DNA of 64,000 bases from Gemmatimonadales bacterium (GCA_035538515.1 DATLKF010000032.1:36073-100072); one strand, 5' to 3'. Shown: positions 390 through 51,295, numbered from the stretch's first letter. The notes: generated by a model not told the origin, from the sequence alone. Numbers and translations are program-made.

Positions 390-390
390 A

Positions 391-495
391 GTCGTCAGTC
401 GTCAGTCATCAGGTATCAGTTGCACGAATGCGCGGGCCGGGTTTCCTTTCTCCTCGCGAAACCCAACTGATGACTGAGCACTGACGACCGATCAC
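391..495. repeat. Palindromic heptad-array element, family D
   Basis: Left arm 391-421 is gtcgtca gtcgtca gtcatca ggtatca gtt. Right arm 465-495 (aactgatgactgagcactgacgaccgatcac) is its imperfect reverse complement. An inner hairpin pairs gggtttc 439-445 with gaaaccc 458-464. The element fills the spacer between the receptor stop (387-389) and the etfB ATG (499). Confidence 0.8.
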
Positions 496-10152: not shown

Positions 10153-10171
10153 GCGGCCCCGGCGGGATCCC

Positions 10172-10239
10172 GGGGTTCGGGGTTCGGGTCTCGGGGCTTG
10201 GGATGCACCCCCAGCCCCGAGCCCCGAGCCCCGAGCCCC
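10172..10239. repeat. Palindromic heptad-array element, family C (GGGG[C/T]TC units)
   Basis: Left arm 10172-10202 is ggggttc ggggttc gggtctc ggggctt ggg. The loop is atgca. Right arm 10208-10239 is cccccag ccccgag ccccgag ccccgag cccc. It sits in the 91-bp spacer between the PTPS-like stop and the fdhD ATG. Confidence 0.85.
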
Positions 10240-12367: not shown

Positions 12368-13089
12368 GCCACGCCGATCGTGGCCCAGCGGTGCGAGGTC
12401 CACTCGGTGATCGCCGCGGTGGGCGCCAGCACGCTGCTTCCCCCGCCTGACGGCGGCACCTTGTAAGAGAGCGGGTAGTGCAGCCGCCACAGCACCAGCC
12501 GGAAATCGCCGCGGATCGAGAGGCGCCGCGCGGGATACCAGCGCACGCCGGCGTTAGGCGAAAGGGTGAACTTGGTGCCGAACGTGTAGCCGCTCGAATC
12601 CTGGGCCAACGTGTTCGCGAACGCGACGCCGAGCGCGCCGCCGATGTAAGGCGCGAAGCCGCGCCACGTCTTGCGGCCCGTCAACACGAGCTGCAGGCCG
12701 GCGTCGGCGAGCACCACCCCGTTGTCGTACGGACCGCTGGTGCGCGCGGAATCCTTCTTGGGATCCACGACGAAGCTTTGGGTCCGCCCGTACGCGAGGC
12801 CGAGTGACGCGCCGATGGCCCCGAATTGGGCGTCGTAGCGGATCCCCGCGGTCGCACCATCGGCGAGGCCGACGCCCAGGCTCCCCCGGCCGCCGCTCAG
12901 GTATCCGAACGCCAGCACGCCGACGGCTCCGCGCCGGATATCGCGATAGGGGGAGTGGCCGGGATCGTAGCCCACTTGAGCGCCGGACGGTTGGACGGTG
13001 GGACCGACGGACAGTAGCACCGTTGCACCGAGTGCGATCCAGCCACGGGTCCACCGTCCGACCGTCCGACCGTCCGACCGTCCGTCCAT
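12355..13089 (-). CDS. Small outer-membrane beta-barrel protein (hypothetical)
   Basis: The predicted signal peptide is MDGRSDGRTVGRWTRGWIALGATVLLSVGPTVQPSGA/QV. It has an alternating amphipathic strand pattern and ends ...ATIGVAWTF. The ATG overlaps the gpmI stop (ATGA). Confidence 0.6.
   Translation of the reverse strand: MDGRSDGRTVGRWTRGWIALGATVLLSVGPTVQPSGAQVGYDPGHSPYRDIRRGAVGVLAFGYLSGGRGSLGVGLADGATAGIRYDAQFGAIGASLGLAYGRTQSFVVDPKKDSARTSGPYDNGVVLADAGLQLVLTGRKTWRGFAPYIGGALGVAFANTLAQDSSGYTFGTKFTLSPNAGVRWYPARRLSIRGDFRLVLWRLHYPLSYKVPPSGGGSSVLAPTAAITEWTSHRWATIGVAWTF
12983..13087. repeat. Palindromic octad-array element, family B ([A/G]GTCGGAC units)
   Basis: Arm 12983-13015 is ccggacggt tggacggt gggaccga cggacagt. 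Arm 13054-13087 is (ccgtccga)x3 ccgtccgtcc, its imperfect reverse complement. A 38-nt spacer separates them. The element lies inside the first ~35 codons of the OMP gene. Confidence 0.8.
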
Positions 13090-14657
13090 CAGTCCGTCTC
13101 CCTGAGATCTCGCCCCGTCATCTCCGGCGGCGGCTCCACACCGAGCAATCGGAGCACCGTGGGCCCCACGTCGCACAGCGCGCCGCCGTGGCGCAGCGGG
13201 CCGCGCACGTCGTCCCCAACGAGGCAGAACGGTACCGGATTGGTGGTGTGGGCCGTGTGAGGGCCGTCCGTCGTGGGATCGATCATCAGCTCGCAATTAC
13301 CGTGGTCCGCCGTGACGAGCAGGGTGGCGCCGCGCCGCTCGGCGCTGCGTAAGACGCGCTCCAGGCAGCGATCCACCGTTTCCACCGCTTGGATGGCGGC
13401 GCGTAGTACCCCGGAGTGGCCGACCATGTCCCCGTTGGCGTAGTTGCACAGGATGAAGTCGTGGTGCCCCGCCTCGATCGCGCGGCACAGCACGTCGGTC
13501 ACGCCCGGGGCGCTCATTTCCGGCATGAGATCGTAGGTCGCGACCTTTTGAGACGGCACCAGCTGCCGCTCCTCGCCCGGGTACGGCGTCTCGACCCCAC
13601 CGTTGAAGAAGTAGGTGACGTGGGCGTATTTCTCCGTCTCGGCGGTCCGGAACATCGTCTTGCCCCGCTCCGACAGCACCTGCGCGACGATCTGCGAGAG
13701 CACCATCGGGCCGAACGCCATCGGGAATGGGAAGGTCGCGTCGTACTGTGTCATCGTCACGAGATCGACGGCCGGCCGAGCCCCGGTGTCGAAACCGTCG
13801 AATCCTTCGAGCGCGAGCGCGCGCACGATCTGGCGCATGCGGTCGGCTCGGAAGTTGACGCAGAAGATACCGTCTCCATCCCGGATGCGCGGCGTGCCGG
13901 TGATCACGCGCGGCTTCACGAACTCGTCCGTCTCGCCGGCCTCGTACGCGCGACGGACGGCGGTAATCGGGTTCGGCGCGGGCTCGCCCACGCCGTGTAC
14001 CATCGCGTCGTACGCGATCTTGGTGCGCTCCCAGCGCTTGTCGCGGTCCATGGCATAGTAGCGACCGACGACGGTGGAAATGCATATGGGGGCTCGGGGA
14101 TCGGGGCTCGGGGCTCGGGCCCCGCCACCCCCGATCCCCTCTACCAGCTCCTGCATGAACGCCAGCCCCGACTGCGGCGCCGTGTCGCGCCCGTCGAGCC
14201 ACGCGTGGATCGCGACCGGCAGGTCGTGCTCGCGGCCGAGCTCGACGGCGGCCACGAGGTGCTGATCGAGCGCGTGCACGCCGCCCGTGCCGATCAGCCC
14301 GCACAGGTGGAGCGTGCCGCCGCGCCGCTTCACGTCGGCGCACAACTGGACTAAGGGCGGAAGGCGGAAGAACTCGCCCGACTGGATTGCCTGCGAGATG
14401 CGCACCATGTCCTGCGGCACGACGCGACCCGCGCCCAGGTTCAGGTGTCCCACCTCGCTGTTGCCGATCTGTCCTTGGGGGAGTCCCACGGCGAGACCCG
14501 ACGCGTCGAGCAGTGTGCGCGGTGCTTTGGCCCACAGACGATGCCAGGTAGGTGTCGCGCCGAGCTCGACGGCGTTGCCCTCCCGGCCGGGGCGGAAGCC
14601 CCAGCCGTCGAGCACGATCAGGACGACCGGGGTGCGCGGCCCATTCTGCTTTGCCAT
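13089..14657 (-). CDS. gpmI: 2,3-bisphosphoglycerate-independent phosphoglycerate mutase
   Basis: It carries VVLIVLDGWG, GNSEVGHLNLGAGR, GRYYAMDRDKRWER and TADHGN. The protein is 522 aa. Confidence 0.92.
   Translation of the reverse strand: MAKQNGPRTPVVLIVLDGWGFRPGREGNAVELGATPTWHRLWAKAPRTLLDASGLAVGLPQGQIGNSEVGHLNLGAGRVVPQDMVRISQAIQSGEFFRLPPLVQLCADVKRRGGTLHLCGLIGTGGVHALDQHLVAAVELGREHDLPVAIHAWLDGRDTAPQSGLAFMQELVEGIGGGGARAPSPDPRAPICISTVVGRYYAMDRDKRWERTKIAYDAMVHGVGEPAPNPITAVRRAYEAGETDEFVKPRVITGTPRIRDGDGIFCVNFRADRMRQIVRALALEGFDGFDTGARPAVDLVTMTQYDATFPFPMAFGPMVLSQIVAQVLSERGKTMFRTAETEKYAHVTYFFNGGVETPYPGEERQLVPSQKVATYDLMPEMSAPGVTDVLCRAIEAGHHDFILCNYANGDMVGHSGVLRAAIQAVETVDRCLERVLRSAERRGATLLVTADHGNCELMIDPTTDGPHTAHTTNPVPFCLVGDDVRGPLRHGGALCDVGPTVLRLLGVEPPPEMTGRDLRETD
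14088..14139. repeat. Family C heptad tract inside gpmI
   Basis: gggggctc ggggatc ggggctc ggggctc ggg occupies 14088-14119. It is followed by ccccgatcccc (14129-14139), which is complementary to ggggatcgggg (14096-14106). It is read in frame as GGGGARAPSPDPRAP. Confidence 0.8.
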
Positions 14658-22490: not shown

Positions 22491-22511
22491 AGACGTCACG
22501 CGAAGACGTCA

Positions 22512-22540
22512 CGCAGGACCGTCGCGTCCCTGCGGTTCTT
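22512..22540 (+). terminator. Possible intrinsic terminator after permease 2
   Basis: The stem is cgcaggac / gtccctgcg (one bulge), the loop is cgtcgc, and the tail is gttctt. It is preceded by the direct repeat agacgtcacgc x2 (22491-22514). Confidence 0.3.
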
Positions 22541-22591
22541 GGCGCCCCTGTGCTACGCCCCATAGCTTTAGGGCACCTAAGGGGAGGTGCC

Positions 22592-23080: not shown

Positions 23081-23099
23081 GGACCGTTATCTTGATGTC

Positions 23100-26217: not shown

Positions 26218-26333
26218 CGAGGGCGCGGTGAGACACCCGGGCTTGCGGCAATCTCCATGCCTGGTGTCCCGAGGTGTCGCGCGCACTCAGCAGGGACGAT
26301 TCTCCGAGCGTATCCTCTGGTAAAGGAGGCCGA

Positions 26334-26675: not shown

Positions 26676-26760
26676 GGGGGGCTGGGCGGAGTCACATCCG
26701 CGAGCGCTTGCTCGGTACCGGTCCCGCACGTCCCCCGCCGAGGCTCGTTACCTTTCACTC

Positions 26761-27858
26761 GTGCCTGCTTCCCACACGCTCCAAGCCCGCGTCGAGCACG
26801 TGCTCTCGCTCCTCGTCAACCCGCGCCGCGGTGGCGACGTCCTCTCGGCCGGGATGGTGAAGGACCTCGCGATCGCCAGCGACGGGACGGTCAGCTTCAC
26901 CTTCCTGCTCGGCCGCGACGATCCGGGATCGCTCGCTCGCGAGGTGCGGAAGGCCGTCCAGGGGGTGGAGGGCGTGACGGCGGTGCGCGTCAACGTGACG
27001 GACGCCGGCGGCGTGCCGACCGGTACCGCGCCTCGCTCGACGGCTCCGCGGCCGGGTGGCGCCTCCGTGCCACCGCCCCCGACGCCCGTGGAACTCCCCC
27101 AGCTCGGTACGGTGCTCGCGATCTCGTCGGGAAAGGGTGGCGTGGGCAAATCCACGGTGTCCGCGAACGTGGCGGTGGCGCTGGCGCGTGCCGGTCACCG
27201 CGTGGGACTGATGGACGCGGACATTTATGGACCCAACATCCCGCGCATGATGGGCGTCGACCGCAAGCCGGAGGTGCAGGGCGGGAGGATCCAGCCGCTC
27301 GAGGCCCACGGCGTGAAGATCATGTCGCTGGGCCTGATCGTGGAGCGCGACGCGCCCGCCATCTGGCGGGGACCGATCATCATGAAGGTGATCCAGCAGT
27401 TCTTGAAGGATGTGGATTGGGGAGAGCTGGATTTCTTCCTCGTGGATTTGCCGCCCGGCACGGGCGACGCGCAGCTGTCGCTCGCGCAGACCGTGCACAT
27501 CCGCGCCGCCGTCATCGTCACCACTCCGCAGGAGGTGGCGGTGGGCGACAGCCTGCGCGGCGCCAAAATGTTCGAGCGCGTGGGGGTGCCCGTGCTGGGC
27601 GTGGTGGAGAACATGAGCTACTTCGTGTGCCCCCATTGCGGCGAGCGGACCGAGATCTTCCTGTCGGGCGGCGGCACCCGGCTCGCGGACGAGCTGGGGG
27701 TGCCGCTGCTGGGACAGGTCCCGTTGCAGGCGCGGCTCCCGAATCTCGCTGACGCCGGCCAACCGGTGGTCGTGGCGGAGCCGGGCACGCCCGCGGCGCA
27801 AGCGCTGGACGCGGTCGCGCGCCGCCTGACCGACTCTCTCGCCTCGCTGCCACGCTGA
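26761..27858 (+). CDS. Mrp/ApbC/NBP35-family Fe-S cluster carrier ATPase
   Basis: An N-terminal DUF59-like region is followed by the deviant Walker A SSGKGGVGKST and the CPHCG motif. The start is GTG. Confidence 0.88.
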   Translation: MPASHTLQARVEHVLSLLVNPRRGGDVLSAGMVKDLAIASDGTVSFTFLLGRDDPGSLAREVRKAVQGVEGVTAVRVNVTDAGGVPTGTAPRSTAPRPGGASVPPPPTPVELPQLGTVLAISSGKGGVGKSTVSANVAVALARAGHRVGLMDADIYGPNIPRMMGVDRKPEVQGGRIQPLEAHGVKIMSLGLIVERDAPAIWRGPIIMKVIQQFLKDVDWGELDFFLVDLPPGTGDAQLSLAQTVHIRAAVIVTTPQEVAVGDSLRGAKMFERVGVPVLGVVENMSYFVCPHCGERTEIFLSGGGTRLADELGVPLLGQVPLQARLPNLADAGQPVVVAEPGTPAAQALDAVARRLTDSLASLPR

Positions 27859-27859
27859 C

Positions 27860-28624
27860 GTGCGGGCTCTGCTTGCCGCGCTGTGTCTGCTGCAAGATCC
27901 CCGCGCCGACCGACCCGAGCTCCGCGCCGGGTTGGACACGCTGTATGCCGGCGGTTTTCCCACCGCCGCCGCGTATTTCGCGGCGCTGGCGGCGCACGAC
28001 TCGAGCGACGCTGCGGCGGTGACGTTCGAGGCGAGCGCCTACATCTGGTGGGCCGCCGCGCTCGAAAACGATGCCTACGAAGCCGAGCGCATCGACTCGC
28101 TGCTGGACCTCGCCGTCCGCCGGGCGCGCGCCGGGTCTCCCGGCCCCGCGCGCGACTTCTGGCTGGCGACCGCGCTGGGGTACCGAGCCCGCCAGCGCGA
28201 CCTGCACGGCCACTCATGGAGCGCGGCGAAAGACGGCAAGGCGATGCGCGACGCCTATGCCCGCGTGCTCGCGGTCGATTCCACCTGCACCGATTGTCTT
28301 CTCGGACTGGGAGTCTATCAGTACGGCCTGGCGCGGGCGGGGGCGCTGGCGCGGCTCGTGGCGAAGATCATCGGGCTGGGGAGCGGGAATGCGGATCGGG
28401 GCATCGGCTACCTCCGGCGGGCCGCGACCGAGGGAGATCTGGGGCGGGTGGAAGCGACCTGGGTGCTCGCGGCCGTGCTCGAGCGCGAGGCCCGACGCGA
28501 CCCCGCGCAACGTGAGGCGCGCGAGCGTGACGCCCGCGACGCGGTCCGGCGCCTCGCCGAGCAATATCCTGGCAATCCGGTCTTCCAGCGCTTCCTCCGC
28601 GAGGTCCCCCAGACGCCCCCCTGA
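27860..28624 (+). CDS. Hypothetical protein (helical, TPR-like?)
   Basis: The ORF has coding-like composition and starts at a GTG 1 nt after the mrp stop. I recognised no motif. Confidence 0.45.
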   Translation: MRALLAALCLLQDPRADRPELRAGLDTLYAGGFPTAAAYFAALAAHDSSDAAAVTFEASAYIWWAAALENDAYEAERIDSLLDLAVRRARAGSPGPARDFWLATALGYRARQRDLHGHSWSAAKDGKAMRDAYARVLAVDSTCTDCLLGLGVYQYGLARAGALARLVAKIIGLGSGNADRGIGYLRRAATEGDLGRVEATWVLAAVLEREARRDPAQREARERDARDAVRRLAEQYPGNPVFQRFLREVPQTPP

Positions 28625-28694
28625 TCGTGCTCACCGCCCCTGTTGCGACGGCGCCACTCTACCATTCTGGCATGAACCTTTTAGCGTGTTCCCG

Positions 28695-29084
28695 ATGGAA
28701 CCGGGCCTGGAGGGGGCGCTCGCCGAGCCGCAGTGGGCTCGGTTACGGGTCGACGTGAACTGTCGGCTACGCCGTGGTGCGTGGTACCGGGTCGCGGGCT
28801 TGAGGGCCGGCGAGGCGATGCTGGACGTGAACCGGCATCCGGTGCCCGTGCCCCGCACCTCGCTGAAGATCGTTACGAAGCCACCCCAGTGCTGGACGGT
28901 CGTCTCGCTCCCGCGCGATGCGAAAGGACTCGCCGCCATGTGGGGCGGTCGGTACGCCGTGTGCCCATCGTGCCGTAATCGCGCGCAGCTGAAGGGGACA
29001 CCAAGCGAGATGCGTTGCTCGCGGTGTATCAAGACGTACCGTGTGGCATGGGAGGAGTGGTTCATGGGGCCGGCTGATCGGTAG
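28695..29084 (+). CDS. Hypothetical protein with C-terminal CxxC...CxxC zinc-ribbon
   Basis: It carries CPSCRNRAQLKGTPSEMRCSRC. The start is ATG 28695. I did not recognise a family. Confidence 0.45.
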   Translation: MEPGLEGALAEPQWARLRVDVNCRLRRGAWYRVAGLRAGEAMLDVNRHPVPVPRTSLKIVTKPPQCWTVVSLPRDAKGLAAMWGGRYAVCPSCRNRAQLKGTPSEMRCSRCIKTYRVAWEEWFMGPADR

Positions 29085-29170
29085 GTTGCATCGGGAGCCG
29101 GTCCCTGTCATCGTTGAGTACTAGTGCCGTTGAAGGCGCGCGCCCCGCCGTCCGGAGACCGAGGGCTGGG

Positions 29171-30553
29171 ATGATCCAGTCGCGATTGGTCAGACGTCTG
29201 GGGTTGCTCGCCGCCATCTGCGCCGCCTATATCGTAGCCGGCAAGCTGGGGTTGCGGCTTGCGTTCGTGAACCCGAGCGCGACGCCCGTCTGGCCTCCCA
29301 CCGGTATCGCGCTCGCGGCGTTCCTGCTTGCCGGGTACGAAGTGTGGCCGGCCATCCTGGTCGGTGCCTTCCTCGTCAACATCACGACCGCGGGCTCCAC
29401 GGCGACTTCCATCGGCATCGCTGCCGGCAATATGCTCGAGGGGTTGGTCGGCGCGTACCTAGTCAACCGGTTTGCCCGGGGGCGGCGGGCGTGCGAGCGC
29501 GCCCGCGACGTCGTCAAACTCGTCGCACTCGCCGGGCTGGCCAGCACCACCCTGAGCGCCACCGCGGGCGTCGTGACGCTCTCGCTCGCGGGCTTCGCCC
29601 CCTGGGGAGACTTTTGGCCCATTTGGTCCACCTGGTGGACGGGGGACGTGGTGGGCGATCTGGTGGTCGCGCCCGCCGTGCTCCTGTGGGCGGAGCGCCC
29701 CCGCATCCACTGGCACCGCCGTCAGGCGCTCGAGGCCGCCGCCTTGCTCGGGTGCCTTGTGGTCGTGGGCCTCGCGGCATTCGATGGGTTGTTCCCGTGG
29801 AAAGACAAGCACTATCCGCTGGAATTCCTGTGCCTCCCGCCGCTGTTGTGGGCGGCGTTCCGCTTCGAGCGGCGCGAAGCGGCGGCGGTCGTGGTGATGC
29901 TCTCGGTCTTGGCGATCTGGGGGACCCTGAGTGGGTACGGGCCGTTCGTCCGGCCGACGTTCAACGAGTCGCTGCTCCTGCTGCAGGCATTCCAAGGTGT
30001 CTCGGCCGTCATGACGCTGGTGCTCGCCGCGGTGGCGGGCGAGCGGAAGGAAGCGGAGGAGCGGCTGCGGCGGCTCGCGGTGAGCGATCCGCTCACGGGG
30101 CTCGCCAATTACCGCCAGCTGGTGCAGGCGCTGGACGTCGAGATCCGGCGCTCCTCCCGCACCGAACGGCCGTTCGCGGTGGTGTTGATGGACCTGGACG
30201 GCTTGAAGCAGATCAACGACCAGCACGGGCACCTCGTAGGCAGCCTGGCCCTGCGGCGGGTGGCGGAGACGTTGCTCGGCTCCTGCCGGGGCATCGATAC
30301 CGCTGCGCGCTTCGGCGGCGACGAGTTCGCGCTGGTGCTTCCGGAGACGGGGGACGCAGCGGCGTGGCACGTCGCCCGGCGTGTGGCCGAACGGGTGTCC
30401 CGGGACGGTGAGAAGCCGAAGCTCTCCGTGAGCATCGGGGTCGCGGTCCATCCGCGCGACGGCGCGACGCTCGAAACGCTGCTGAACGCGGCGGATCGCT
30501 CGTTGTACGAGATCAAGGCGCAGCGGCACCGCAAGACGCACATCGCTCGTTGA
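29171..30553 (+). CDS. MASE1-GGDEF diguanylate cyclase
   Basis: It has a MASE1-like multi-TM sensor region (FVNPSATPVWPPTGIALAAFLL...) and a catalytic domain SDPLTGLANYRQL...VVLMDLDGLKQINDQHGHLVG...ARFGGDEFALVLPE. TTG 29114 is an alternative start. Confidence 0.8.
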   Translation: MIQSRLVRRLGLLAAICAAYIVAGKLGLRLAFVNPSATPVWPPTGIALAAFLLAGYEVWPAILVGAFLVNITTAGSTATSIGIAAGNMLEGLVGAYLVNRFARGRRACERARDVVKLVALAGLASTTLSATAGVVTLSLAGFAPWGDFWPIWSTWWTGDVVGDLVVAPAVLLWAERPRIHWHRRQALEAAALLGCLVVVGLAAFDGLFPWKDKHYPLEFLCLPPLLWAAFRFERREAAAVVVMLSVLAIWGTLSGYGPFVRPTFNESLLLLQAFQGVSAVMTLVLAAVAGERKEAEERLRRLAVSDPLTGLANYRQLVQALDVEIRRSSRTERPFAVVLMDLDGLKQINDQHGHLVGSLALRRVAETLLGSCRGIDTAARFGGDEFALVLPETGDAAAWHVARRVAERVSRDGEKPKLSVSIGVAVHPRDGATLETLLNAADRSLYEIKAQRHRKTHIAR

Positions 30554-30587
30554 CCTCCGGCCCGGCGCCCCGGTAGCTTCCGGCGCC

Positions 30588-31928
30588 ATGACCACCGTCG
30601 CCCGCACGCCCGGCTCCCTCACCGTCGGGCCGCTCCGGCCCGTCATTCTGAAGCTCGCCGCGCCTGCGGTCGCGATGATGGCCTGCCACTTCTGTTTCAA
30701 CCTCATCGATGCCATCTGGGTGGGCAACCTGATCGGGGCCGCCGCGCTCGCCGCGGTCTCGACCGCGGGGTTCTACGTGTGGGTGCTGCTGTCGCTTGGC
30801 GAGATGGTGGAGGTAGGGCTGATCGCGGTCGCGGCGCGGCGACACGGAGAGGGGCGCCCTGACGCCGCCGCGCGTGCCGCGGGCGCCGCCGTGGTGTATG
30901 CCCTCGCGGCTGGGACCGTCGTCTCCCTGGTCGGCCTCGGCCTCACCGCCGCCCTGTTCCGCTTGATGAGCGTTCCGGCCGAGGTTGCGACGCTGGGGCG
31001 CGCGTACCTCGACACCTGGCTCCTGGGCGGGCCGCTCGTGTTCGGGTTCTTCGCCGTCGAGGCGACGTTCCGCGCCTCGGGCGACACGCGTACGCCGTTT
31101 CGGCTGTTGATGGCCTCCGTGTTGCTGTCGATCGGGCTCGATCCGCTGCTGATCGCCGGAATCGGCCCCTTGCCCAGGCTCGGGGTGGAAGGCGCTGCCC
31201 TCGCGTCGGTCATGGTGCGGGGCGGTGGTTTCCTCATCGGGATCGGCATCGCGTGGCGGCGGGGGCTGATCCGCCTCGATGCGCCCGACTGGCATGCGCT
31301 CCCCACGGTGTTTCGCGTGGGCGCGCCGCTTTCGCTCGCGGGCGTGCTGCTCTCGATCGTGTACATGTGGCTCACGCGGTACACGTCGCGCTTCGGGACC
31401 GCGGCGCTCGCGGCGCTCGGTGTCGGCCACAAGGTGGAGGGCCTCGGCTTCATCGCGATCTCGGGATTCGCGCTCTCGGCGTCGGCGCTCGTGGGACAGA
31501 ACCTAGGCGCGGGACAGGAGGCCCGCGCGCGCCAGGCCGTGCGCATGACAGTGGCGTACTGCCTCGCCGTCACCACGACCACGGCCATCGCGTTTCTAAC
31601 GATTCCGAGGCTGCTCGTCGCGCTGTTCACGTCGGATTCGGCGGTGATCGCGGACGGGAGTCTCTATCTGCGGGTGATCGCGTTCGCGCAGATCGGCCAG
31701 ACGTTCGAGATCATTCTGGAGGGCGCGTTGGCCGGGGCGGGCTATACCCTGTGGCCTCAGATCACGAGCACCACGCTCACCTTGCTGCGAGTGCCGCTCG
31801 GCGCCTGGTGGTCGGGTGCGATCGGGCTGATCGGCATCTGGCTCGCTCTGTCGGTGACCGCCGTGTCGCGGGGGATCGCGATGACTCTGTTTTGGCTACG
31901 AGGCGCATGGCGGAACACGGTGTTATGA
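30588..31928 (+). CDS. MATE-family efflux transporter
   Basis: It has a 12-TM profile with duplicated halves, N-terminal ILKLAAPAVAMMACHFCFNLIDAIWVG, and 446 aa. Confidence 0.85.
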   Translation: MTTVARTPGSLTVGPLRPVILKLAAPAVAMMACHFCFNLIDAIWVGNLIGAAALAAVSTAGFYVWVLLSLGEMVEVGLIAVAARRHGEGRPDAAARAAGAAVVYALAAGTVVSLVGLGLTAALFRLMSVPAEVATLGRAYLDTWLLGGPLVFGFFAVEATFRASGDTRTPFRLLMASVLLSIGLDPLLIAGIGPLPRLGVEGAALASVMVRGGGFLIGIGIAWRRGLIRLDAPDWHALPTVFRVGAPLSLAGVLLSIVYMWLTRYTSRFGTAALAALGVGHKVEGLGFIAISGFALSASALVGQNLGAGQEARARQAVRMTVAYCLAVTTTTAIAFLTIPRLLVALFTSDSAVIADGSLYLRVIAFAQIGQTFEIILEGALAGAGYTLWPQITSTTLTLLRVPLGAWWSGAIGLIGIWLALSVTAVSRGIAMTLFWLRGAWRNTVL

Positions 31929-31929
31929 C

Positions 31930-32015
31930 AACGCGGAACGCGGAAGTCGGAATGCGGAACAGGCGGCTCGAGGTCCGCTCGAATGTTCCGCGTTCGGCAT
32001 TCCGCGTTCCGACTT
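31930..32015. repeat. Palindromic heptad-array element, family A copy 1
   Basis: The left arm is cgcggaa cgcggaa gtcggaa tgcggaa ca (31932-31961). The spacer is 22 nt. The right arm is tg ttccgcg ttcggca ttccgcg ttccgac tt (31984-32015). About 24/30 arm positions are complementary by eye. It starts 1 nt after the MATE TGA and ends at the next gene start. Confidence 0.85.
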
Positions 32016-32019
32016 GACC

Positions 32020-32763
32020 ATGGCCACCCTAATCACGCTCCTTACCGACTTCGGTGACGCCGACAGCTACCTGGGCGAAATGAAGGGTGTGCTGCTGTCG
32101 CAGGTGCACGGCGCGGCGCTCGTCGATATCACTCACCAGGTGCCCCCCGGTAACGTGCGGGCCGCGCAGTACGTCCTGTCACGCGTGTGGCACCGGTTCC
32201 CGCAAGGAAGCGTCCACCTCGCGGTGGTGGATCCGGGAGTGGGCACGGCCCGGCGAGCGCTCGCCGCCTCGACGGCCGGCCACTTCTTCGTCGCCCCCGA
32301 CAACGGGCTGCTCTCGTTCCTGCCGGGGGATGCACACTTCGCAACCCTGCCGATTCCGCCAACGGCCGCCCCCACGTTCCATGCGCGCGACGTGTTCGCG
32401 CCGGCCGCGGGCCAGCTCGCCCTGGGTGCCTCGTTGTCACACGTGGGCCACCCCATCACCGATCCGCTGCGCTCCCCGCTCCCTGCGCCCCGCACGCACG
32501 GCGGCGTGACGATCGGCGAAGTGCTCTATGTCGATCGGTTTGGGACTCTGATCTCGAACATTCCGGGCGCAGCGGTGGAGCCGGGCGTGCGGATCAGGGT
32601 CGCGGGAACGGAAATCGGTCCCCTGTCGCGGACGTTCGGCGACGTGGGCCGGGGAGCCCTGTTGGCGTTTGTGGGAAGTGGCGGGACGGTGGAGATCGCC
32701 GTGCGGGACGGCAGCGCGGCGCGCCTGTTAGGCGTCGGTGTGGGGGCGGAGGTGCGGGCCTGA
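32020..32763 (+). CDS. SAM hydroxide adenosyltransferase / chlorinase-fluorinase-family (DUF62) protein
   Basis: It carries ITLLTDFGDADSYLGEMKGV, VVDPGVGTARRALA, FVAPDNGLLSF and FHARDVFAPAAG. TTG 32014 is an alternative start. Confidence 0.8.
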   Translation: MATLITLLTDFGDADSYLGEMKGVLLSQVHGAALVDITHQVPPGNVRAAQYVLSRVWHRFPQGSVHLAVVDPGVGTARRALAASTAGHFFVAPDNGLLSFLPGDAHFATLPIPPTAAPTFHARDVFAPAAGQLALGASLSHVGHPITDPLRSPLPAPRTHGGVTIGEVLYVDRFGTLISNIPGAAVEPGVRIRVAGTEIGPLSRTFGDVGRGALLAFVGSGGTVEIAVRDGSAARLLGVGVGAEVRA

Positions 32764-32988
32764 CGGTGTGGGGATCTTCACCTTCGCCATTACCCGCTCC
32801 ACGAACCCGAATTCGGGTGCGAAGCGCGTCAACTGCGCCAGCTCGCGAATCAGCTTGCGCTCCCGCTCCGCCGCCAGACGGCAGTCGGCGCACGCGCCCA
32901 CGTGACCCTCACGTGCGGCGGGCAGGAGACCCTGAGCCCACAGCTCGATCTCCTCGGGAGTCAGATGCTGCACCAGCGGCTCGTTCAT
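32728..32988 (-). CDS. Putative anti-sigma factor (zf-HC2-like)
   Basis: The 86-aa ORF lies immediately downstream of the ECF sigma gene and carries an H..x3..C..xx..C pattern (GHVGACADCRLA). Its 3' end overlaps the convergent DUF62 gene. Confidence 0.55.
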   Translation of the reverse strand: MNEPLVQHLTPEEIELWAQGLLPAAREGHVGACADCRLAAERERKLIRELAQLTRFAPEFGFVERVMAKVKIPTPSGPHLRPHTDA

Positions 32989-33022
32989 GGTGTCGTCCTA
33001 CGGCCCGGAGGGGGTGCGGGTT

Positions 33023-33739
33023 TCACGGGCGCCGATCCTCCAGGTAGGTCCGTAATTCGTTGCGCGCCCTGTGGATATACGTCTTCACCGTGCCCAGGGG
33101 CAGGTCCAGAATGCGGGCGATCTCCTCGTAGCTGTGACCCTCCACGTGGCGCAGCAGGATGCAGGAGCGGTATTCGGGGCGGAGCCGCGCGATGGCCCGC
33201 TCGATGGCGCTGCCGAGCTCGCGCGCCTCGAGCTCCTGCAACGGTGTTTCGCTCCGGTCGCCGAGCTGCAGCGCCGTCGCGCGCATTTGGTCCGGCGTCG
33301 TGGCGTGCGGCGACCCGTCGAGCGACAGCGTCTCGAGCTCGCGCTTGCGCAGGTGATCGATCGCGGCGTTGTTGGCGATCTTGAAGATCCACGAGGAGAA
33401 CTTGAACTGCGGATTGTACGAGTCGATGCCGTTCAGGACCTTGATGAACGTTTCCTGCGCGAGGTCCTCGGCGAGCGCGCGGTCACGCACCATACGATAC
33501 AGTAACGAGAACACCGGGCGCTCGTAGCGCCGCACCAGCTCGCGAAACGCCGCTTCGTGGCCCTGCGTCGCCCACGCGGCGACTTGTTGATCGCTGGCGC
33601 CCGTCAGGTTGCCCGGCCTATCTTTCGCGCTTATGACGCACCCCTTCGGTACCTCCCCGACCTTCACAGCCTCCACCGACCTCCCGCCCGCCGCGCGGGC
33701 GGCCAAGCGGTCGTACGTGCGCACCATGTTCGCCGCCAT
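33023..33739 (-). CDS. ECF-type RNA polymerase sigma factor
   Basis: Region 2 reads FRELVRRYERPVFSLLYRMVRDRALAEDLAQETFIKV. Region 4 reads LRHVEGHSYEEIARILDLPLGTVKTYIHRARNEL. The longest ORF is given; GTG starts at 33676 or 33667 are equally possible because the 5' end overlaps divergent ubiE. Confidence 0.8.
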   Translation of the reverse strand: MAANMVRTYDRLAARAAGGRSVEAVKVGEVPKGCVISAKDRPGNLTGASDQQVAAWATQGHEAAFRELVRRYERPVFSLLYRMVRDRALAEDLAQETFIKVLNGIDSYNPQFKFSSWIFKIANNAAIDHLRKRELETLSLDGSPHATTPDQMRATALQLGDRSETPLQELEARELGSAIERAIARLRPEYRSCILLRHVEGHSYEEIARILDLPLGTVKTYIHRARNELRTYLEDRRP

Positions 33740-34385
33740 CGCGCCGCGCTACGACTTCCTCAATCATCTCCTCAGCTTCAACATCGACCGCGCCTGGCGG
33801 CGCGCCGCGGTGCGACGGCTCGGCTGGGAGCGGCGACCCGGCGGCACGTACCTCGATCTCTGCGCCGGCACACTCGACCTCGCGGCGACGCTGGCGCGTG
33901 AGCCGGCGTTCTCCGGGCGCGTCGTCGGCGCGGACTTCGTGGTCCCGATGCTCGCACGGGGGAAGACCAAAGCGGTCCGTATCCGTCCCGTCGGAGCCGA
34001 CGCGCTCACGCTCCCGTTCGCTGACGCTCGGTTCGACGGAGCGATGGTGGCTTTCGGAGTGCGGAATCTGGCGGATCTCGACGCGGGGCTCGCCGAGGCG
34101 CATCGCGTGCTCCGGCCGGGGGCGCACTTCGTGGCGCTGGAGTTCACGCTGCCGAGGTTCGCGCCGCTGCGCGCCCTCTACCTCGTGTACCTGCGGCACG
34201 TGCTCCCGGCGATCGGCCGCGTGGTGTCGAAACATAGGGACGCCTATGCCTACCTGCCAGAGTCGGTGCTCGGCTTTCCAGATCCCGAGGCCTTCGCACA
34301 CCGGTTGGAACGCGCCGGATTCCACGAGGTGAGCTTCGAGCGGCTTACGGGCGGGATCTGCGCCGTCCATCATGGCACTCGATAA
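33633..34385 (+). CDS. ubiE: Demethylmenaquinone/ubiquinone C-methyltransferase (UbiE/MenG)
   Basis: It carries VRTMFAAIAPRYDFLNHLLSFNIDRAWRR and the SAM motif YLDLCAGTLDL. The exact start is uncertain. Confidence 0.85.
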   Translation: MTHPFGTSPTFTASTDLPPAARAAKRSYVRTMFAAIAPRYDFLNHLLSFNIDRAWRRAAVRRLGWERRPGGTYLDLCAGTLDLAATLAREPAFSGRVVGADFVVPMLARGKTKAVRIRPVGADALTLPFADARFDGAMVAFGVRNLADLDAGLAEAHRVLRPGAHFVALEFTLPRFAPLRALYLVYLRHVLPAIGRVVSKHRDAYAYLPESVLGFPDPEAFAHRLERAGFHEVSFERLTGGICAVHHGTR

Positions 34386-35850
34386 CCTGCGTGGCTGGCT
34401 CGACGCGATCGCTGCGCGCGACGAGCTGGTACGCGTCGAGCGCCCGGTGTCGGTGGACAAAGAGCTCACGGAGATCGCGGATCGCTGCATGAAGTCGCCG
34501 GGAGGTGGACCGGCGCTCTTGTTCACACATCCCACGCTGCGGTCGGGCGGCACCGCGCGGCAGCCGGTTGCCGTGAACCTGTTCGGGTCGGAGCGCCGCA
34601 TGGCGCTGGCGCTGGGCGTGGAGTGCCTGGACGAGATCGGCGAGCGGATCACGACTTTCCTCAACCTGAAGGTTCCCGACAGCCTGCTCGGCAAGCTCGC
34701 GATGCTGCCGCAGCTGGCAGAGGTCGCCAAGTTCCCGCCCAAGACGACCGGCGGAAAGCCGCCGTGTCAGGAGACAGTGCTGCGCGAGCGGGATGTCGAC
34801 CTGTCGCAGTTCCCGGTGCCAGTGTGCTGGCCGCTCGACGGAGGTCCGTACATCACCCTGCCCGGCGTGATCACGCGCGATCCCAGGACCGGCGTGCGCA
34901 ACGTGGGCATGTACCGCATCCAGGTGATCGGACGCAACGAGCTGGCAATGCACTGGCAGCGCCACAAGGTTGGCGCCGCGCACTGGCGCGAGATGGCGGC
35001 GCGCGGCGAGCGCATGCCGGTCGCCATCGCGCTGGGCGGCGACCCCGCGTCCATCTACGCGGCCTCGGCGCCGCTCCCCCCCACCATCGATGAGTTCCTG
35101 TTCGCGGGCTTCCTCCGCAAGGAGCCGGTGCGGCTCGCGAAGGCCGTGACGAGCGACCTCGAAGTGCCAGCGGAAGCCGAAATCGTGCTGGAGGGTTATG
35201 TCGACCCCCGCGAGGAGCTCGTGCTCGAAGGACCGTTCGGTGACCACACCGGCTTCTACTCGCTTGCAGACTACTACCCCAGGGTGCACGTCACCGCGAT
35301 CACGCTGCGTCAGGACCCCGTGTGGCCGCACACGATCGTGGGCCGGCCGCCGATGGAAGATTACTGGCTGGGCCATGCGACCGAGCGGATCTTCCTGCCG
35401 CTCCTGAAGCTCACGCTCCCCGAGATCGTGGACCTCCATATGCCGGCCGAGGGGATATTCCACAACCTCGTGTTCGTGAGCATCGACAAGCAGTACCCGG
35501 GCCAGGCGTACAAAGTGATGAGCGGCCTATGGGGGCAAGGACTGATGTCACTCGCCAAGGTGATCATCGTCCTCGACAAGGATGTGAACGTGCGCGACCC
35601 CAAGGAGGCGTGGTGGGTGGCGTTGAATCACATCGACCCCGAGCGCGACGTGCGCTTCACCCCGGGGCCGATCGACGTGCTGGATCATTCGAGCCGCGGC
35701 TTCACCTTCGGGTCCAAGATGGGCATCGATGCCACGCGCAAATGGAAGGAAGAAGGCTTCACGCGCGAGTGGCCGGGAAGAATCGTGATGGATGCGGAAA
35801 CGAAGCAGCGCGTCGACGTGATGTGGAAGGAGCTGGGAATTGAGCTCTGA
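34372..35850 (+). CDS. ubiD: UbiD-family (prenylated-FMN dependent) decarboxylase
   Basis: The 492-aa protein carries ...RNVGMYRIQVIGRNELAMHWQRHKVGAAHW... and ...GPFGDHTGFYS... Confidence 0.9.
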   Translation: MALDNLRGWLDAIAARDELVRVERPVSVDKELTEIADRCMKSPGGGPALLFTHPTLRSGGTARQPVAVNLFGSERRMALALGVECLDEIGERITTFLNLKVPDSLLGKLAMLPQLAEVAKFPPKTTGGKPPCQETVLRERDVDLSQFPVPVCWPLDGGPYITLPGVITRDPRTGVRNVGMYRIQVIGRNELAMHWQRHKVGAAHWREMAARGERMPVAIALGGDPASIYAASAPLPPTIDEFLFAGFLRKEPVRLAKAVTSDLEVPAEAEIVLEGYVDPREELVLEGPFGDHTGFYSLADYYPRVHVTAITLRQDPVWPHTIVGRPPMEDYWLGHATERIFLPLLKLTLPEIVDLHMPAEGIFHNLVFVSIDKQYPGQAYKVMSGLWGQGLMSLAKVIIVLDKDVNVRDPKEAWWVALNHIDPERDVRFTPGPIDVLDHSSRGFTFGSKMGIDATRKWKEEGFTREWPGRIVMDAETKQRVDVMWKELGIEL

Positions 35851-36763
35851 CCGACAGTCGGAAGGTCGGACAGTCGGACGAGAAGGCCAAACGGTCGCGG
35901 GCGAAAGCTTGCTTGTCCGCTATGTCAACTTCGTCAAGCTGCCGCACACAGTATTCGCGTTACCGTTCGCATTGCTCGGTGTGATCGTTGCTTCGCGTGA
36001 GGCGGCGGTGACGTGGCGGATGCTCGGGCTCGTCGTTCTCGCGTTCACGTGTGCCCGGTTCGTTGCGCTCGGGTTCAACCGCATCGCGGATCGCGAGCTC
36101 GACGCGCGGAACCCGCGCACCAGCGGCCGTGAGCTCCCCAGCGGGCGCCTCACCCTGACGCAGGCCTGGGTCGCGGTGGCCGCGGCGGCGGCGCTGTTTC
36201 TGGTGAGCGCCTGGGCGCTGAACCCGCTGTGCTTCGCCCTCGCCCCCATCGCGCTGCTCTTCGTCGCGGCATACAGCTACACCAAGCGGTTCACGTCCTG
36301 GTCGCATCTGTGGCTCGGCCTCGCGGACGGCATCGCGACGCCGGCAGGATATCTCGCGGTGACCGGCCGCTGGGGCGATCCCTGGTGGCTGCTTCCTGTG
36401 GGCGCGCTCGCCGTCACGTTCTGGGTTGGTGGCTTCGACGTGTTCTACGCGCTCCCCGACGAGACCTTCGACCGTGCCGAGCGGCTCGCGTCGCTCGTGG
36501 TGCGGCTGGGGCAGGCGCGGGCCATCCGGGTCGCGAAGCTGCTGCACGGGGTCGCGCTGGTCGCGCTTGTCGTATTCGGGATCGGGGCGGGTTTGGGTGT
36601 GGCCTATTACGCCGGCGTGGCGGCCGGCGCCGCGCTCATCATCTGGGAGCACCAGCTGGTCCGGCCGGGAGACCTGCGCCGGCTGAATGCGGCGTTCTTC
36701 ACCGCGAACGGAATCGTGAGCGTGGTCGTGTTCCTGGGAGCGTTGGTGGATAGAGTGATATGA
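35840..36763 (+). CDS. ubiA: UbiA-family aromatic prenyltransferase (4-hydroxybenzoate / dihydroxynaphthoate type)
   Basis: It carries VKLPHTVFALPFALLG, the Asp-rich motif NRIADRELD and 8-9 TM helices. TTG 35840 gives the longest ORF; TTG 35909 is an alternative that would leave the family B tract noncoding. Confidence 0.85.
   Translation: MSSDRQSEGRTVGREGQTVAGESLLVRYVNFVKLPHTVFALPFALLGVIVASREAAVTWRMLGLVVLAFTCARFVALGFNRIADRELDARNPRTSGRELPSGRLTLTQAWVAVAAAAALFLVSAWALNPLCFALAPIALLFVAAYSYTKRFTSWSHLWLGLADGIATPAGYLAVTGRWGDPWWLLPVGALAVTFWVGGFDVFYALPDETFDRAERLASLVVRLGQARAIRVAKLLHGVALVALVVFGIGAGLGVAYYAGVAAGAALIIWEHQLVRPGDLRRLNAAFFTANGIVSVVVFLGALVDRVI
35851..35880. repeat. Family B octad tract (single arm)
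   Basis: ccgac agtcggaa ggtcggac agtcggac g lies directly after the ubiD TGA (35848-35850). No convincing inverted partner was seen nearby. Confidence 0.7.
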
Positions 36764-36851
36764 AACGCGGAACGCGGAAGTCGGAACGCGGAGCAGACGA
36801 GCGAGTGCCGGTGGCGCCTGTTCCGCGTTCCCCGTTCCGCGTTCCGCGTTC
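36763..36851. repeat. Palindromic heptad-array element, family A copy 2
   Basis: The left arm is cgcggaa cgcggaa gtcggaa cgcggag ca (36766-36795). The spacer is 22 nt and unrelated to that of copy 1. The right arm is tg ttccgcg ttccccg ttccgcg ttccgcg ttc (36819-36851). About 26/30 positions are complementary. It abuts the ubiA TGA. Confidence 0.85.
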
Positions 36852-36917
36852 TCTTCCGCCCCCGAGACCGCCAGCGCATCCCAAGCGCTCTCCCACGCCC
36901 AATCGACGCGGGCACTG

Positions 36918-44904: not shown

Positions 44905-44957
44905 GTGATGCTCCTGCCGAAAGATAGAACCCGCACTACGCTAACGGATCTGTGGTG

Positions 44958-47444: not shown

Positions 47445-48865
47445 ATGACCGGCACCTTAATGGTCGGTGTCTCGGGGATCCGCGGCATCGTAGGCAAGGA
47501 CCTGACCGATGAAATCGTCGCCCGCTACGCCCGGGCGTTCGGCCGGTGGGCCAAGGGAAGGGCGGGGGGGGCGCGCAATCCGCTCGTGGTGGTCGGCCGC
47601 GACGCGCGGGAATCCGGAGCGGCGTTCGAGCGGGCCGTGACCGACGCGTTGCGGTCCGTGCGGTGCGACGTCGTGCAGCTAGGCGTCGTCCCCACCCCCA
47701 CCGTGCAGCTAGCGGTCGAGCATCACCACGCAGGCGGCGGGATCGCCATCACGGCCAGCCACAACCCCATCGAGTGGAACGCCCTGAAATTCATCGGGCC
47801 GGACGGAATTTTCCTCGACGGCAAGGACGGAAGGCGGGTGCTGGAGCTGGTGGGAGAGGACGGGGGAGGACGGGGAAGGACGGGGGAGGCTAGGACCGAT
47901 GACCAGGCGATCGCGCGGCACCTCGCGGCCGTGCTGGAGCTTCCGGCGGTGGACGTCGCGGGGGTCCGGGCCCGCAAGCTCACCGTGGCGCTCGACACGG
48001 TGCGGGGAGCGGGAGGCCCGGTGATGCGGGAGCTCCTGGAGCGGCTTGGCTGCCGCGTGGAGGGCATCAACCTCGAGACCGATGGCCAGTTTCCCCGGCC
48101 CCCGGAGCCGGTGCCCGAGAACCTGGGTGACCTGGCCGCCCTCGTGCAGCGGACCGGTGCGGTGTTCGGCATCGCGGTCGATCCGGACGTGGATCGCCTG
48201 GCGATCGTGGACGACCGGGGGATGCCGATTGGGGAGGACTACACGCTTGCCTTCGCCGTTCGAGCGGTCTTCGGTGTCGGAGCGTCGGACAGTCGGACGG
48301 TCGGACTGCAAAGCGGTGGACTGTCCGACCGTCCGACCGACCGAAGAACCGTCGTCTGCAACCTCTCGACCAGCCTCGTCGTCGAAGACGCCGCCCGTGA
48401 GTTCGGCGCCGAGGTCGTCCGGACGCCCGTCGGCGAAGTGCACGTCGCCCGCAAGATCCTCGCACTCGGGGCGCCGATCGGGGGGGAGGGGAACGGGGGC
48501 GTCATGTATCCCGCGCTGCACGTCGGTCGGGATGCCCCGGTCGCGGCGGCGTTGCTGCTGACGCTGCTCGCCCGGTCGGGAACGCGAGTGAGCGAGCTCG
48601 TAGCCGCGGCCCCGCGCTATGTGATCGTCAAAGCAAAGTTGGAACGGGGAACGCGGAACGCGGAACGGGGAATGGAAGAGATCTATGCCGCTTTGCGTCG
48701 GCGGTTCCCCGAGGCGAGCGTCGACACGCAGGACGGGTTGCGGCTCGCCTGGTCGGACCGCTGGCTGCACGTGCGGCCGTCCAACACCGAGCCGATCATC
48801 CGGCTGATCGCCGAGGCGCCGATCCGCGCCGATGCGGAACGACTGATCGAGGAGGGGCGCCGCCC

Positions 48866-48881: not shown

Positions 48882-50707
<1,826 letters not shown>

Positions 50708-50827
50708 GAACGCGGAAGTCGGAACGCGGAATGCGGAACGGCCGGTCGGCCGTCGATCGGCAACGAAAGCCCACGGGCCAGAAACGCGAAGGCTCTGTTC
50801 CGCGTTCCGACTTGCGCGTTCCGCGTT
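50708..50827. repeat. Palindromic heptad-array element, family A copy 3
   Basis: The left arm is cgcggaa gtcggaa cgcggaa tgcggaa cgg (50711-50741). The spacer is 53 nt. The right arm is tg ttccgcg ttccgac ttgcgcg ttccgcg tt (50796-50827). It abuts the glmS TGA and is followed by an SD gggagggg and the dtd GTG. Confidence 0.85.
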
Positions 50828-50845
50828 AGGGAGGGGCGGGGCGGC

Positions 50846-51295
50846 GTGAGGGTGGTTCTGCAGCGCGTGTCCCGTGCGGCGGTGCGGGTGAACGGACGAG
50901 TGACGGGATCGATTGGGGTCGGGTTGCTCGTCCTCGCCGGCTTCGCCGCGTCCGACACCGAGGAGACGCTCACCTGGATGGCCGACAAGATCATCGGTGT
51001 GCGGCTGTTCGCGGACGCCGAGGGCAAGATGAACCTGGCGCTCGCCGATGTGCGTGGAGGGCTGCTGGTCGTCTCTCAGTTCACATTGTATGGCGACGTC
51101 AAGAAAGGACGGCGCCCGAGCTTCATCGACGCCGCGGTGCCCGAGGTGGCCATCCCGCTCTATGATCGCTTCGTCGCACTGCTCCGGGAGCGGGGCGCCG
51201 GGAGCGGGACCGCGGTGGCGACGGGGGAGTTTGGCGCCATGATGGAAGTGGAGCTGGTGAACGACGGACCCGTCACCTTGATCTTGGAGCGGTGA
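50846..51295 (+). CDS. dtd: D-aminoacyl-tRNA deacylase
   Basis: It carries MRVVLQRV, SQFTLYGDVKKGRRPSF and the NDGPVT motif. The protein is 149 aa. Confidence 0.9.
   Translation: MRVVLQRVSRAAVRVNGRVTGSIGVGLLVLAGFAASDTEETLTWMADKIIGVRLFADAEGKMNLALADVRGGLLVVSQFTLYGDVKKGRRPSFIDAAVPEVAIPLYDRFVALLRERGAGSGTAVATGEFGAMMEVELVNDGPVTLILER

Follow-up and report, generated by a model that had tools for sequence, protein, structure and literature searches.

Hairpins built from 7-bp short tandemly repeated repetitive (STRR) sequences lie between hupS and hupL in cyanobacteria, and a role in transcript stability or translational coupling has been proposed for them (PMC2670836). Heptameric repeats of Xanthomonas (GGGAATC) and Nostoc (GGGGA(C/T)T) prefer four units and form 70 to 75 convergent inverted pairs per genome; they are strongly biased to non-coding DNA, lie close to or overlap stop codons, and occupy the same junctions in related species with variable length and sequence (Rehm et al. 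2015, PMC4692102). The class, recorded for decades as cyanobacterial STRR and since 2015 in Xanthomonas, is neglected and little understood. In this study, we analyzed a stretch of 64,000 nucleotides from a Gemmatimonadales bacterium (GCA_035538515.1 DATLKF010000032.1:36073-100072; G+C about 69%), referred to as the window, in which three copies of a palindromic repeat, Family A, fill junctions between operon genes. Judged by its sequence architecture, Family A belongs to this known class (STRR or Xanthomonas-type heptamer palindromes), which a first-pass annotation of the window had overlooked. We propose, with moderate confidence, that Family A is a Gemmatimonadales member of the heptanucleotide tandem-repeat palindromes, with stems that modulate operon expression and are maintained in place.

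The three Family A elements (31929-32016, 36764-36850 and 50709-50827) are inverted pairs of heptamer arrays, and each starts 0 to 1 nt 3' of a TGA stop codon, that of MATE (copy 1), UbiA (copy 2) or GlmS (copy 3). Reading the sequence directly, we found them where the first-pass annotation had placed them, each abutting its TGA. The left boundaries, described there as ATGA followed after 0 to 1 nt by the element, have C, no base and G between TGA and AACGCGGAA in copies 1, 2 and 3, respectively; the unit order said to be common to copies 1 and 2 holds, the first three left-arm units being identical; and copy 3 does end just ahead of the Shine-Dalgarno sequence and GTG of dtd, both of which lie in its tail. 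The parts of the elements are as follows (loci used for comparison carry L numbers).

31926..31928, + strand: TGA stop of MATE (MatE); copy 1 begins 1 nt on, with left boundary TTATGA-C-AACGCGGAA
31929..31961, + strand: copy 1 5' G-rich arm, (C)AA CGCGGAA CGCGGAA GTCGGAA TGCGGAA CA
31962..31983, + strand: copy 1 spacer (loop), 22 nt
31984..32016, + strand: copy 1 3' C-rich arm, TTCCGCG-type units; the SAM_HAT ATG (32020) lies 3 nt beyond
32013-32015, + strand: vestigial TGA within the copy 1 3' arm
36761..36763, + strand: TGA stop of UbiA; copy 2 begins at the following base, with left boundary ATATGA-AACGCGGAA
36764..36799, + strand: copy 2 5' arm, AA CGCGGAA CGCGGAA GTCGGAA CGCGGAG CAGACG
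36815..36850, + strand: copy 2 3' arm, CGCCTG TTCCGCG TTCCCCG TTCCGCG TTCCGCG TT
36852..36917, + strand: non-repeat tail of 66 nt from copy 2 to the ubiX ATG (36918), terminating in cTGATG
50705..50707, + strand: TGA stop of GlmS; copy 3 begins 1 nt on, with left boundary GAATGA-G-AACGCGGAA
50709..50739, + strand: copy 3 5' arm, AA CGCGGAA GTCGGAA CGCGGAA TGCGGAA C
50740..50796, + strand: copy 3 spacer, 57 nt, partly alignable with the orthologous hairpin spacers of L119, L120 and L124
50797..50827, + strand: copy 3 3' arm, G TTCCGCG TTCCGAC TTGCGCG TTCCGCG TT
50828..50848, + strand: copy 3 tail with the Shine-Dalgarno-like GGGAGGGG and the new dtd GTG start (GTGA); every relative with a hairpin at glmS/dtd has this tail

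From outside to inside, all six arms consist of AA, four NNCGGAA units and CA or CG, in the same phase and at the same length. Tandem Repeats Finder (TRF) reported period 7 and 3.9 to 4.7 copies for every arm, i.e., head-to-tail 7-nt units. According to the repeat search, the arms of copy 1 are 33 nt each and 82% complementary, those of copy 2 are 36 nt each and 86% complementary around a 15-nt spacer, and those of copy 3 are 31 nt each and 81% complementary; a 7-nt shift in the register of copy 3 gives 24 nt with 96% pairing. Stems of Family A can pair in several registers offset by 7 nt. The spacers of copies 1 to 3 are mutually unrelated, with local-alignment scores no better than those of shuffled sequences, and the arms alone are in common. 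Within the window, a two-unit pattern with at most two mismatches occurs 21 times compared to 2.9 expected (0 of 100 shuffles reached 21), and 15 period-7 arrays are present compared to 1.2 in third-order Markov simulations. As the lone heptamer is not enriched in the window (45 occurrences, 38 expected), the tandem arrangement is the signal.

Orthologous junctions in relatives, a comparison that the first-pass annotation had recommended, include empty stop/start overlaps. At glmS/dtd, 11 relatives have a 4-nt overlap, GAATGAGGGTCGTC (ATGA), and no element. The window, L129, L119, L120, L124 and L125 have a hairpin followed by a common GGGG-rich tail, which carries a new Shine-Dalgarno sequence and the GTGA start, and L134 has a hairpin of another heptamer, TTGCGGA. 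The heptamers at this junction thus include CGCGGAA, TGCGGAA/G, CACGTTG and TTGCGGA in the various genomes. When these hairpins were aligned, compensatory double changes were seen in 9 of 39 stem pairs, at the position where the units vary; both arms have therefore changed in concert. At MATE/SAM_HAT, the genes overlap as TGATG in L202, L203 and L205, are separated by 6-12 nt in L200 and L201, and in L204 flank a hairpin whose units are CTTGCGG, with a vestigial TGATG after it. The empty site predicted for copy 1, TTATGACCATGG, was not found, the relatives at this junction showing either TGATG or the 6-12 nt spacers.

The ubiA/ubiX junction has a spacer of 145-192 nt with a conserved 3' tail in all seven genomes compared, and in five of them a hairpin adjoins the TGA. 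The window has CGCGGAA units, L201 and L204 (whose loops are homologous) have TGCGGAA/G, L199 has GATGCGA and L200 has GGGGGAC. In a concatenated UbiD-UbiA-UbiX tree, L201 and L204 fall in different clades; this implies that the hairpin has long been present at this junction, that its arms turn over and that its loss is possible. Each of the seven genomes has a ubiX start of the form NTGA. The 66-nt tail (36852-36917) is likewise conserved in all seven, including the two that have no hairpin (e.g., CGCATCC..GCTCTCCCAC..CCGAACCGG); it could have a leader or regulatory function, or could be what is left of an ATGA overlap.

These comparisons of sequences indicate that: the Family A elements are insertions, because the corresponding junctions of relatives are stop/start overlaps (ATGA, TGATG); hairpins persist at the same sites in related genomes while the heptamers of both arms change together; and the elements can be absent or decayed with the operon retained. 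The differing heptamers at orthologous sites point to turnover in place over fresh insertion of one family.

The same architecture recurs well outside the window. A genome scan with CGCGGAA-NNCGGAA-NNCGGAA returned at least 117 loci, a few of them likely chance matches, and it says nothing on over-representation; the matches listed come from Gemmatimonadota, Verrucomicrobiota, Planctomycetota, Acidobacteriota, Chloroflexota and others. All class-wide counts given here refer to the window plus loci L002-L226, among the matches listed. By a strict core definition, 48 arrays have three units, 87 have four, 17 have five, none has six or seven, and 4 have eight. Simple slippage would not yield such a sharp four-unit mode, which agrees with the Xanthomonas report. 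Convergent (GGAA...TTCC) pairs outnumber divergent ones (47 versus 12). In hairpins of period 7 or 8 (86 in total), the 5' arm has more G than C in 77 and more C than G in 9, and among non-xGGAA hairpins, which the search pattern did not select, the G-rich arm again comes first (36 versus 6, p = 3e-6). As a palindrome reads the same on both strands, this polarity is a real structural rule. The arms nearly always begin with AA and often end with CAG, and many contain exactly one GTCGGAA unit, even across phyla; the CGGA core is conserved, the other unit positions vary, and GGAG variants are common.

Individual loci provide examples. The 30-nt arm AACGCGGAACGCGGAAGTCGGAACGCGGAG, identical to the left arm of copy 2 (36764-36793), is present in a contig of a lower-GC Verrucomicrobiota metagenome-assembled genome (L036, 2098-2230), and loci of Thermomicrobiales, Planctomycetota and Elusimicrobia also have arms in which GTCGGAA occurs exactly once. 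Viral contigs (L206-L226), when scanned, yielded 21 stretches with NNCGGAA arrays, mostly single and between genes. Most of these (e.g., L210/L221, L224 and L226) are G-rich on the coding strand and lie in a stop-to-ATG gap, 5-25 nt upstream of the start; one 71-kb viral contig has at least four NNCGGAA arrays. Each genome has its own multi-copy repeat families. In L162, a GGCTGAG/CCCTTAG hairpin occurs twice, 10 kb apart (2987-3077 and 12698-12800), and in L165, two intergenic regions (6403-6550 and 7130-7230) are filled by long arrays, with ten ACGACAGG units running from the dtd TAG, followed by seven CCGCTCA units.

The stop-codon preference that the first-pass annotation expected of further copies was also observed. 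In the cross-phylum set, the ends of long open reading frames (ORFs) lie 0-4 nt upstream of arrays at about six times background. Of the 73 non-coding arrays in 622 kb of Gemmatimonadales loci, 28 are located at −13 to +9 nt of a stop, versus 9 near a start, and 17 lie within 9 nt of a stop compared to 6.4 expected under uniform placement, all these figures being based on crude (GC3-based) gene calls and on orthologous sites that are not independent.

How could such arms be kept and spread? In our proposal, replication slippage within the arrays and template switching from arm to arm would keep the arms repetitive and complementary, the switching being easy because the stems pair in multiple registers. 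Occasional short-patch templated copying, probably without a transposase, would carry arms from site to site. A hairpin-shaped insertion would disturb the coupling of overlapping genes least, so that such insertions would survive.

The main rival to slippage and template switching is an enzyme-driven element: a non-autonomous element like a MITE (miniature inverted-repeat transposable element) or a REPIN, for which an enzyme supplied in trans would recognize the 32-nt four-unit arms and insert at stop/start overlaps with a 3-4 nt duplication (TGA/TGAG). We consider this possible but on balance unlikely. It is consistent with the clean presence or absence at orthologous junctions (glmS/dtd, MATE/SAM_HAT), the near-identical arms in distant phyla and viral contigs, the multi-copy families particular to each genome (Family A here, GGCTGAG in L162), the fixed arm length, phase and ends (AA...CAG) in many genomes, and the quantum of four units with a small bump at eight. 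However, the spacers of the three copies are unrelated, and the glmM array described below took the place of about 15 nt rather than being cleanly inserted. A TGA stands at or near both ends of inserted segments (ATGAG/.../GTGAG in copy 3, TGA/.../cTGATG in copy 2 and TGA/.../TGATG in L204), and the NTGA at the ubiX start fits the same picture, but duplication of the overlap would be demanded by selection under any mechanism, since both genes stay intact only if the insertion duplicates the stop/start. Moreover, the inserted segments hold non-hairpin tails that are conserved even where the hairpin is absent, so that the hairpin is not flush with the right-hand TGA. Nor was a transposase seen between paired arrays (the intervening genes in L084 are phage structural genes), and the GTAG/CGTC head of repetitive extragenic palindromic (REP) sequences is absent. 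The idea of selfish insertions that target stop codons, raised in the first-pass annotation, therefore survives in part: the empty junctions in relatives speak for insertion, but a discrete mobile stop-targeting element finds no support in copies that have only their arms in common. When the copies were aligned, as that annotation had suggested, the arm termini were uniform, and in copies 2 and 3 a tail of 20-66 nt separates the 3' arm from the right-hand TGA.

Another idea, which we hold to be improbable, is that the approximately 32-nt four-unit arm is a discrete module written or copied by a dedicated activity common to several phyla. Such an activity might add G-rich repeats in a template-directed manner to both 3' ends of a DNA break before the ends are joined, or might be an enzyme recognizing four heptamers. 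It would jointly explain the four-unit length, the bump at eight and the G-rich-first polarity on both strands (77 versus 9), together with equal arms around unrelated spacers and the AA.../...CAG ends; it would also explain the near-identical one-GTCGGAA arms in Gemmatimonadota, Verrucomicrobiota, Planctomycetota, Chloroflexota and viral contigs.

Folded as RNA, the copies reach −54 to −68 kcal/mol, and their z-scores range from −3 to −7.6. A scan for terminators and promoters revealed no terminator-like site or promoter at any copy, and no U-tract is present 3' of the copies, where the flanks read GACCAUGG, CUCUUCC and AGGGAGG; the loops are 15-57 nt. The copies are therefore not classical intrinsic terminators, as had been noted in the first-pass annotation, and without a U-tract the stem would not terminate transcription. 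Rfam 15 gave no matches in the window at the gathering score, and in E-value mode copies 1 and 2 matched only sub-threshold miRNA-precursor models, i.e., generic hairpins. One could still regard the elements as the U-tract-poor ("I-shaped") terminators or attenuators of a high-GC bacterium, lowering read-through into the downstream gene, given the very stable GC-rich stems directly after genes, the AA...TT bounds of the arms that place UU after the hairpin on every strand, and the T-run following the 3' arm in some lower-GC genomes (e.g., L094). However, besides the missing U-tract and terminator call and the long loops, the elements lie between genes that overlap in relatives and are hence co-expressed, and members of the class are found inside the glmM coding region. 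We therefore view termination or attenuation as very improbable.

Most likely, the co-transcribed stem would be opened by the terminating ribosome and would tune termination, coupling and mRNA decay but would not end transcription. The operon mRNA would fold a stem of 27-31 bp that starts 0 to 1 nt past the UGA and so would fall within the approximately 12-15 nt that a terminating ribosome must occupy. A ribosome at the UGA would have to unwind the 5' arm, leading to slower termination and lower upstream output. In E. coli, ribosomes stall at REP hairpins that lie no more than 15 nt from a stop, and expression of the upstream gene is reduced (Liang et al. 2015, as described in PMC12306157). 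Unwinding of the 5' arm would free the 3' arm beside the downstream start, and the stem base would keep that start beside the stop, so that the coupling of formerly overlapping genes would be largely retained; the gap from stem base to start is 3 nt in copy 1 and 18 nt, including the Shine-Dalgarno sequence, in copy 3. In addition, the stem would block 3' exonucleases, and RNase III could plausibly use a duplex of this length (27-31 bp) as a substrate. As for the polarity, one may speculate that with the G-rich arm transcribed first, the C-rich arm would be paired once made, and Rho loading would be avoided.

A different role for the arms would be that of a binding array or alternative structure, in which four spaced GGAA/GGAG motifs serve as a landing pad for a protein or an anti-Shine-Dalgarno sequence, or form a four-tract G-quadruplex, with the C-rich arm as a mask. 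Four units are also the mode in Xanthomonas, where G-quadruplex formation in vitro was shown (PMC4692102), and the conserved CGGA core among otherwise variable positions, the common GGAG variants and the single arrays just upstream of starts in viral contigs fit such a role. However, the GG runs of Family A with their 5-nt loops could not form a quadruplex that competes with a stem of about −55 kcal/mol, families of the same design in the window have neither the GGA motif nor G-runs (e.g., AGTCGTC and GCGAGAT), and no candidate binding protein was identified. We consider this quite improbable.

Several observations weigh against our proposal of stem-modulated, locally maintained elements. First, every functional step of the stem model is one that we infer. 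Second, local slippage alone does not explain: the four-unit mode; the G-rich-first polarity (77 versus 9); the presence of the same arm, with one GTCGGAA, at several loci and in other phyla; or the recurrent arm ends AA... and ...CAG. Third, a TGA at or close to each end of the inserted segments could also stem from a mechanism that duplicates its target site. Fourth, at ubiA/ubiX in L202 and L205 the spacer is kept and has no significant structure (z about 0), and because the hairpin is missing in these two relatives, any function that it has would be dispensable. Finally, of the 22 hairpins whose orientation is known, many of them orthologues, only 16 fold better as sense than as antisense, and the evidence for RNA-level selection on the hairpins is weak.

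Other candidates were tried and rejected. A full-length insertion sequence bounded by the arms does not fit L084, where phage structural proteins, and no transposase, are encoded in the 1.9 kb from one hairpin to the next. Integron attC sites were discarded because the flanks are syntenic housekeeping genes and the RYYYAAC/GTTRRRY core is absent, and a G-quadruplex fails as a general explanation because several families have no G-runs. The unrelated spacers, the tails inside inserted segments, the unclean glmM array and the lack of a transposase between arrays speak against a classical MITE.

The flanking genes named in the first-pass annotation (MATE, DUF62, ubiA, ubiX, glmS and dtd) were assigned correctly. 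Pfam marks on an identical Logan contig and on relatives also assigned UbiD, and the closest UbiD homologues bear names that, with the G+C content, place the host in Gemmatimonadales.

30588-31928, + strand: MatE, by Pfam marks on the identical Logan contig and relatives
ATG at 32020, + strand: SAM_HAT (formerly DUF62), by the same marks
35840-36763, + strand: UbiA, by the same marks
start at 36918, + strand: Flavoprotein/UbiX, by the same marks
48866-50707, + strand: GlmS, by translation and homology
GTG at 50846, + strand: Dtd, by translation and homology

That contig (L001, Logan SRR8500449, equal to window positions 21105-36791) stops 28 nt past the UbiA stop, within copy 2, whose repeat apparently broke the short-read assembly. 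In practical terms, heptamer repeats of this class disrupt short-read assemblies.

TRF and direct reading revealed that Family A is one among several heptamer and octamer families of like design in the window, with arrays near stops at 390, 13049, 31930, 35853, 36764 and 50708. The related arrays are as follows.

48641..48672, + strand: single-arm Family A array (fourth copy), CGGGGAA CGCGGAA CGCGGAA CGGGGAA, in frame within glmM and encoding ERGTRNAERG
48276..48344, + strand: octamer hairpin, GTCGGACN x4 / GTCCGACC, in frame within glmM
390..492, + strand: AGTCGTC x3 ... GACGACT-type hairpin, from the base after a TAG stop (387-389) to 6 nt before an ATG (499)
12985..13098, − strand: octamer hairpin, GGACGGTN / GTCCGACC, which overlaps gene 13089-14657 (minus strand) at its stop end
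10171..10239, no strand assigned: GGGGTTC x3.7 / CCCCGAG x4.6 hairpin, −77 kcal/mol on the + strand
14089: GGGGCTC array
35853..35879, + strand: array of GTCGGACA-type octamers, x3.4, from 2 nt past the UbiD TGA and within the UbiA N-terminal coding region

In the glmM-like (phosphoglucosamine-mutase-like) ORF, whose stop is at 48881, alignment with 15 orthologues revealed both repeats to be in-frame additions at variable loops. The segment with the Family A array is 15 nt longer than in relatives that have no array (five additional residues), the array having taken the place of about 15 nt with no clean insertion, and the octamer hairpin accounts for some 57-60 nt more than in distant relatives (about 19 residues added). 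The same two loops carry other octamers or heptamers, or none, in relatives; at site 1, hairpins in four genomes have segments of equal length (99-102 nt) and four different octamers. Also within glmM, a 10-nt repeat, GGGGGAGGAC x3.8 (47852-47889), encodes a Gly/Arg-rich stretch, GEDGGGRGRTGE, in a loop of variable length between orthologues. Elsewhere in the window, a perfect 17-nt tandem duplication (GTTGCACAGAAGCATCG x2.1; 4448-4482), its unit not a multiple of three, lies just past the first start codon of ORF 4435-5208, and a similar 17-nt duplication with 94% identity lies at 44957-44991.

The heptamer palindrome architecture is thus much more widespread than its record in cyanobacteria and Xanthomonas: it is found in Gemmatimonadota, and viral contigs and no fewer than four further phyla have it with the same NNCGGAA unit. 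In housekeeping operons, the elements separate stop/start junctions that used to overlap, and they may sit in frame inside enzymes. A mechanism is needed for three rules: an arm has four units, the G-rich arm precedes the C-rich one, and at a fixed site both arms change jointly. If a stop-adjacent stem does modulate termination, coupling or decay, it would be a widespread and evolvable means of tuning operon stoichiometry; should the rules come from a dedicated writing activity, this would be new biology.

Like the REP sequences and BIMEs of E. coli and the REPINs, Family A consists of dispersed palindromic repeats, often in inverted pairs, located after stops inside operons. REP elements of E. 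coli are also barriers to mRNA decay. However, a REP unit is an imperfect palindrome of 20-40 nt with a GTAG/CGTC head and a link to a RAYT (TnpA-REP) transposase, whereas the Family A arm is headless and made of non-palindromic direct heptamers that start from AA; no RAYT was seen in the 64-kb window, where no Pfam Y1_Tnp screen of the proteins was made. From copy to copy, REPIN spacers are conserved and those of Family A are not. Family A resembles MITEs in its terminal inverted repeats and its presence or absence at orthologous sites, but its copies have no common internal sequence. Rickettsia palindromic elements (RPEs) are in-frame insertions tolerated in protein genes, 100-150 nt long, with conserved sequence and no tandem heptamers or octamers. 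The glmM hairpin at 48276-48344 is, like them, a palindromic in-frame insertion in a protein gene, but it is built of tandem octamers.

TAACTGA heptamer direct repeats of Beggiatoaceae and cyanobacteria are intergenic, have 2-6 units, lie at gene boundaries with some overlapping stops, and are patchy across phyla (PMC4679880). Unlike Family A, such arrays hardly ever occur in anything but direct orientation, are usually found immediately upstream of start codons, and have a unit with stop codons in every frame. A literature search with the exact Family A repeat strings gave no match.

With the cyanobacterial STRR sequences, Family A has in common 7-bp repeat hairpins in intercistronic operon spacers; the unit sequences and the phylum differ. 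The closest likeness is to Xanthomonas and Nostoc: tandem 7-nt units, four units, convergent pairs, adjacency to stops, and position kept with variable sequence, and the Xanthomonas unit GGGAATC, when rephased, reads TCGGGAA, the NNSGGAA form of Family A. The host phylum, Gemmatimonadota, is different, and Family A has GG rather than GGG or GGGG tracts, which makes the quadruplex rationale weak; it lacks the four tracts of at least three G needed for a G-quadruplex, and GGGG occurs in other window families (GGGGTTC, GGGGCTC). Beyond the Xanthomonas and Nostoc report, our analysis adds the empty ancestral overlaps, the concerted change and turnover of both arms, the in-frame copies within the glmM protein, and the G-rich-first polarity for unrelated heptamers, together with the four-unit rule, across units and phyla.

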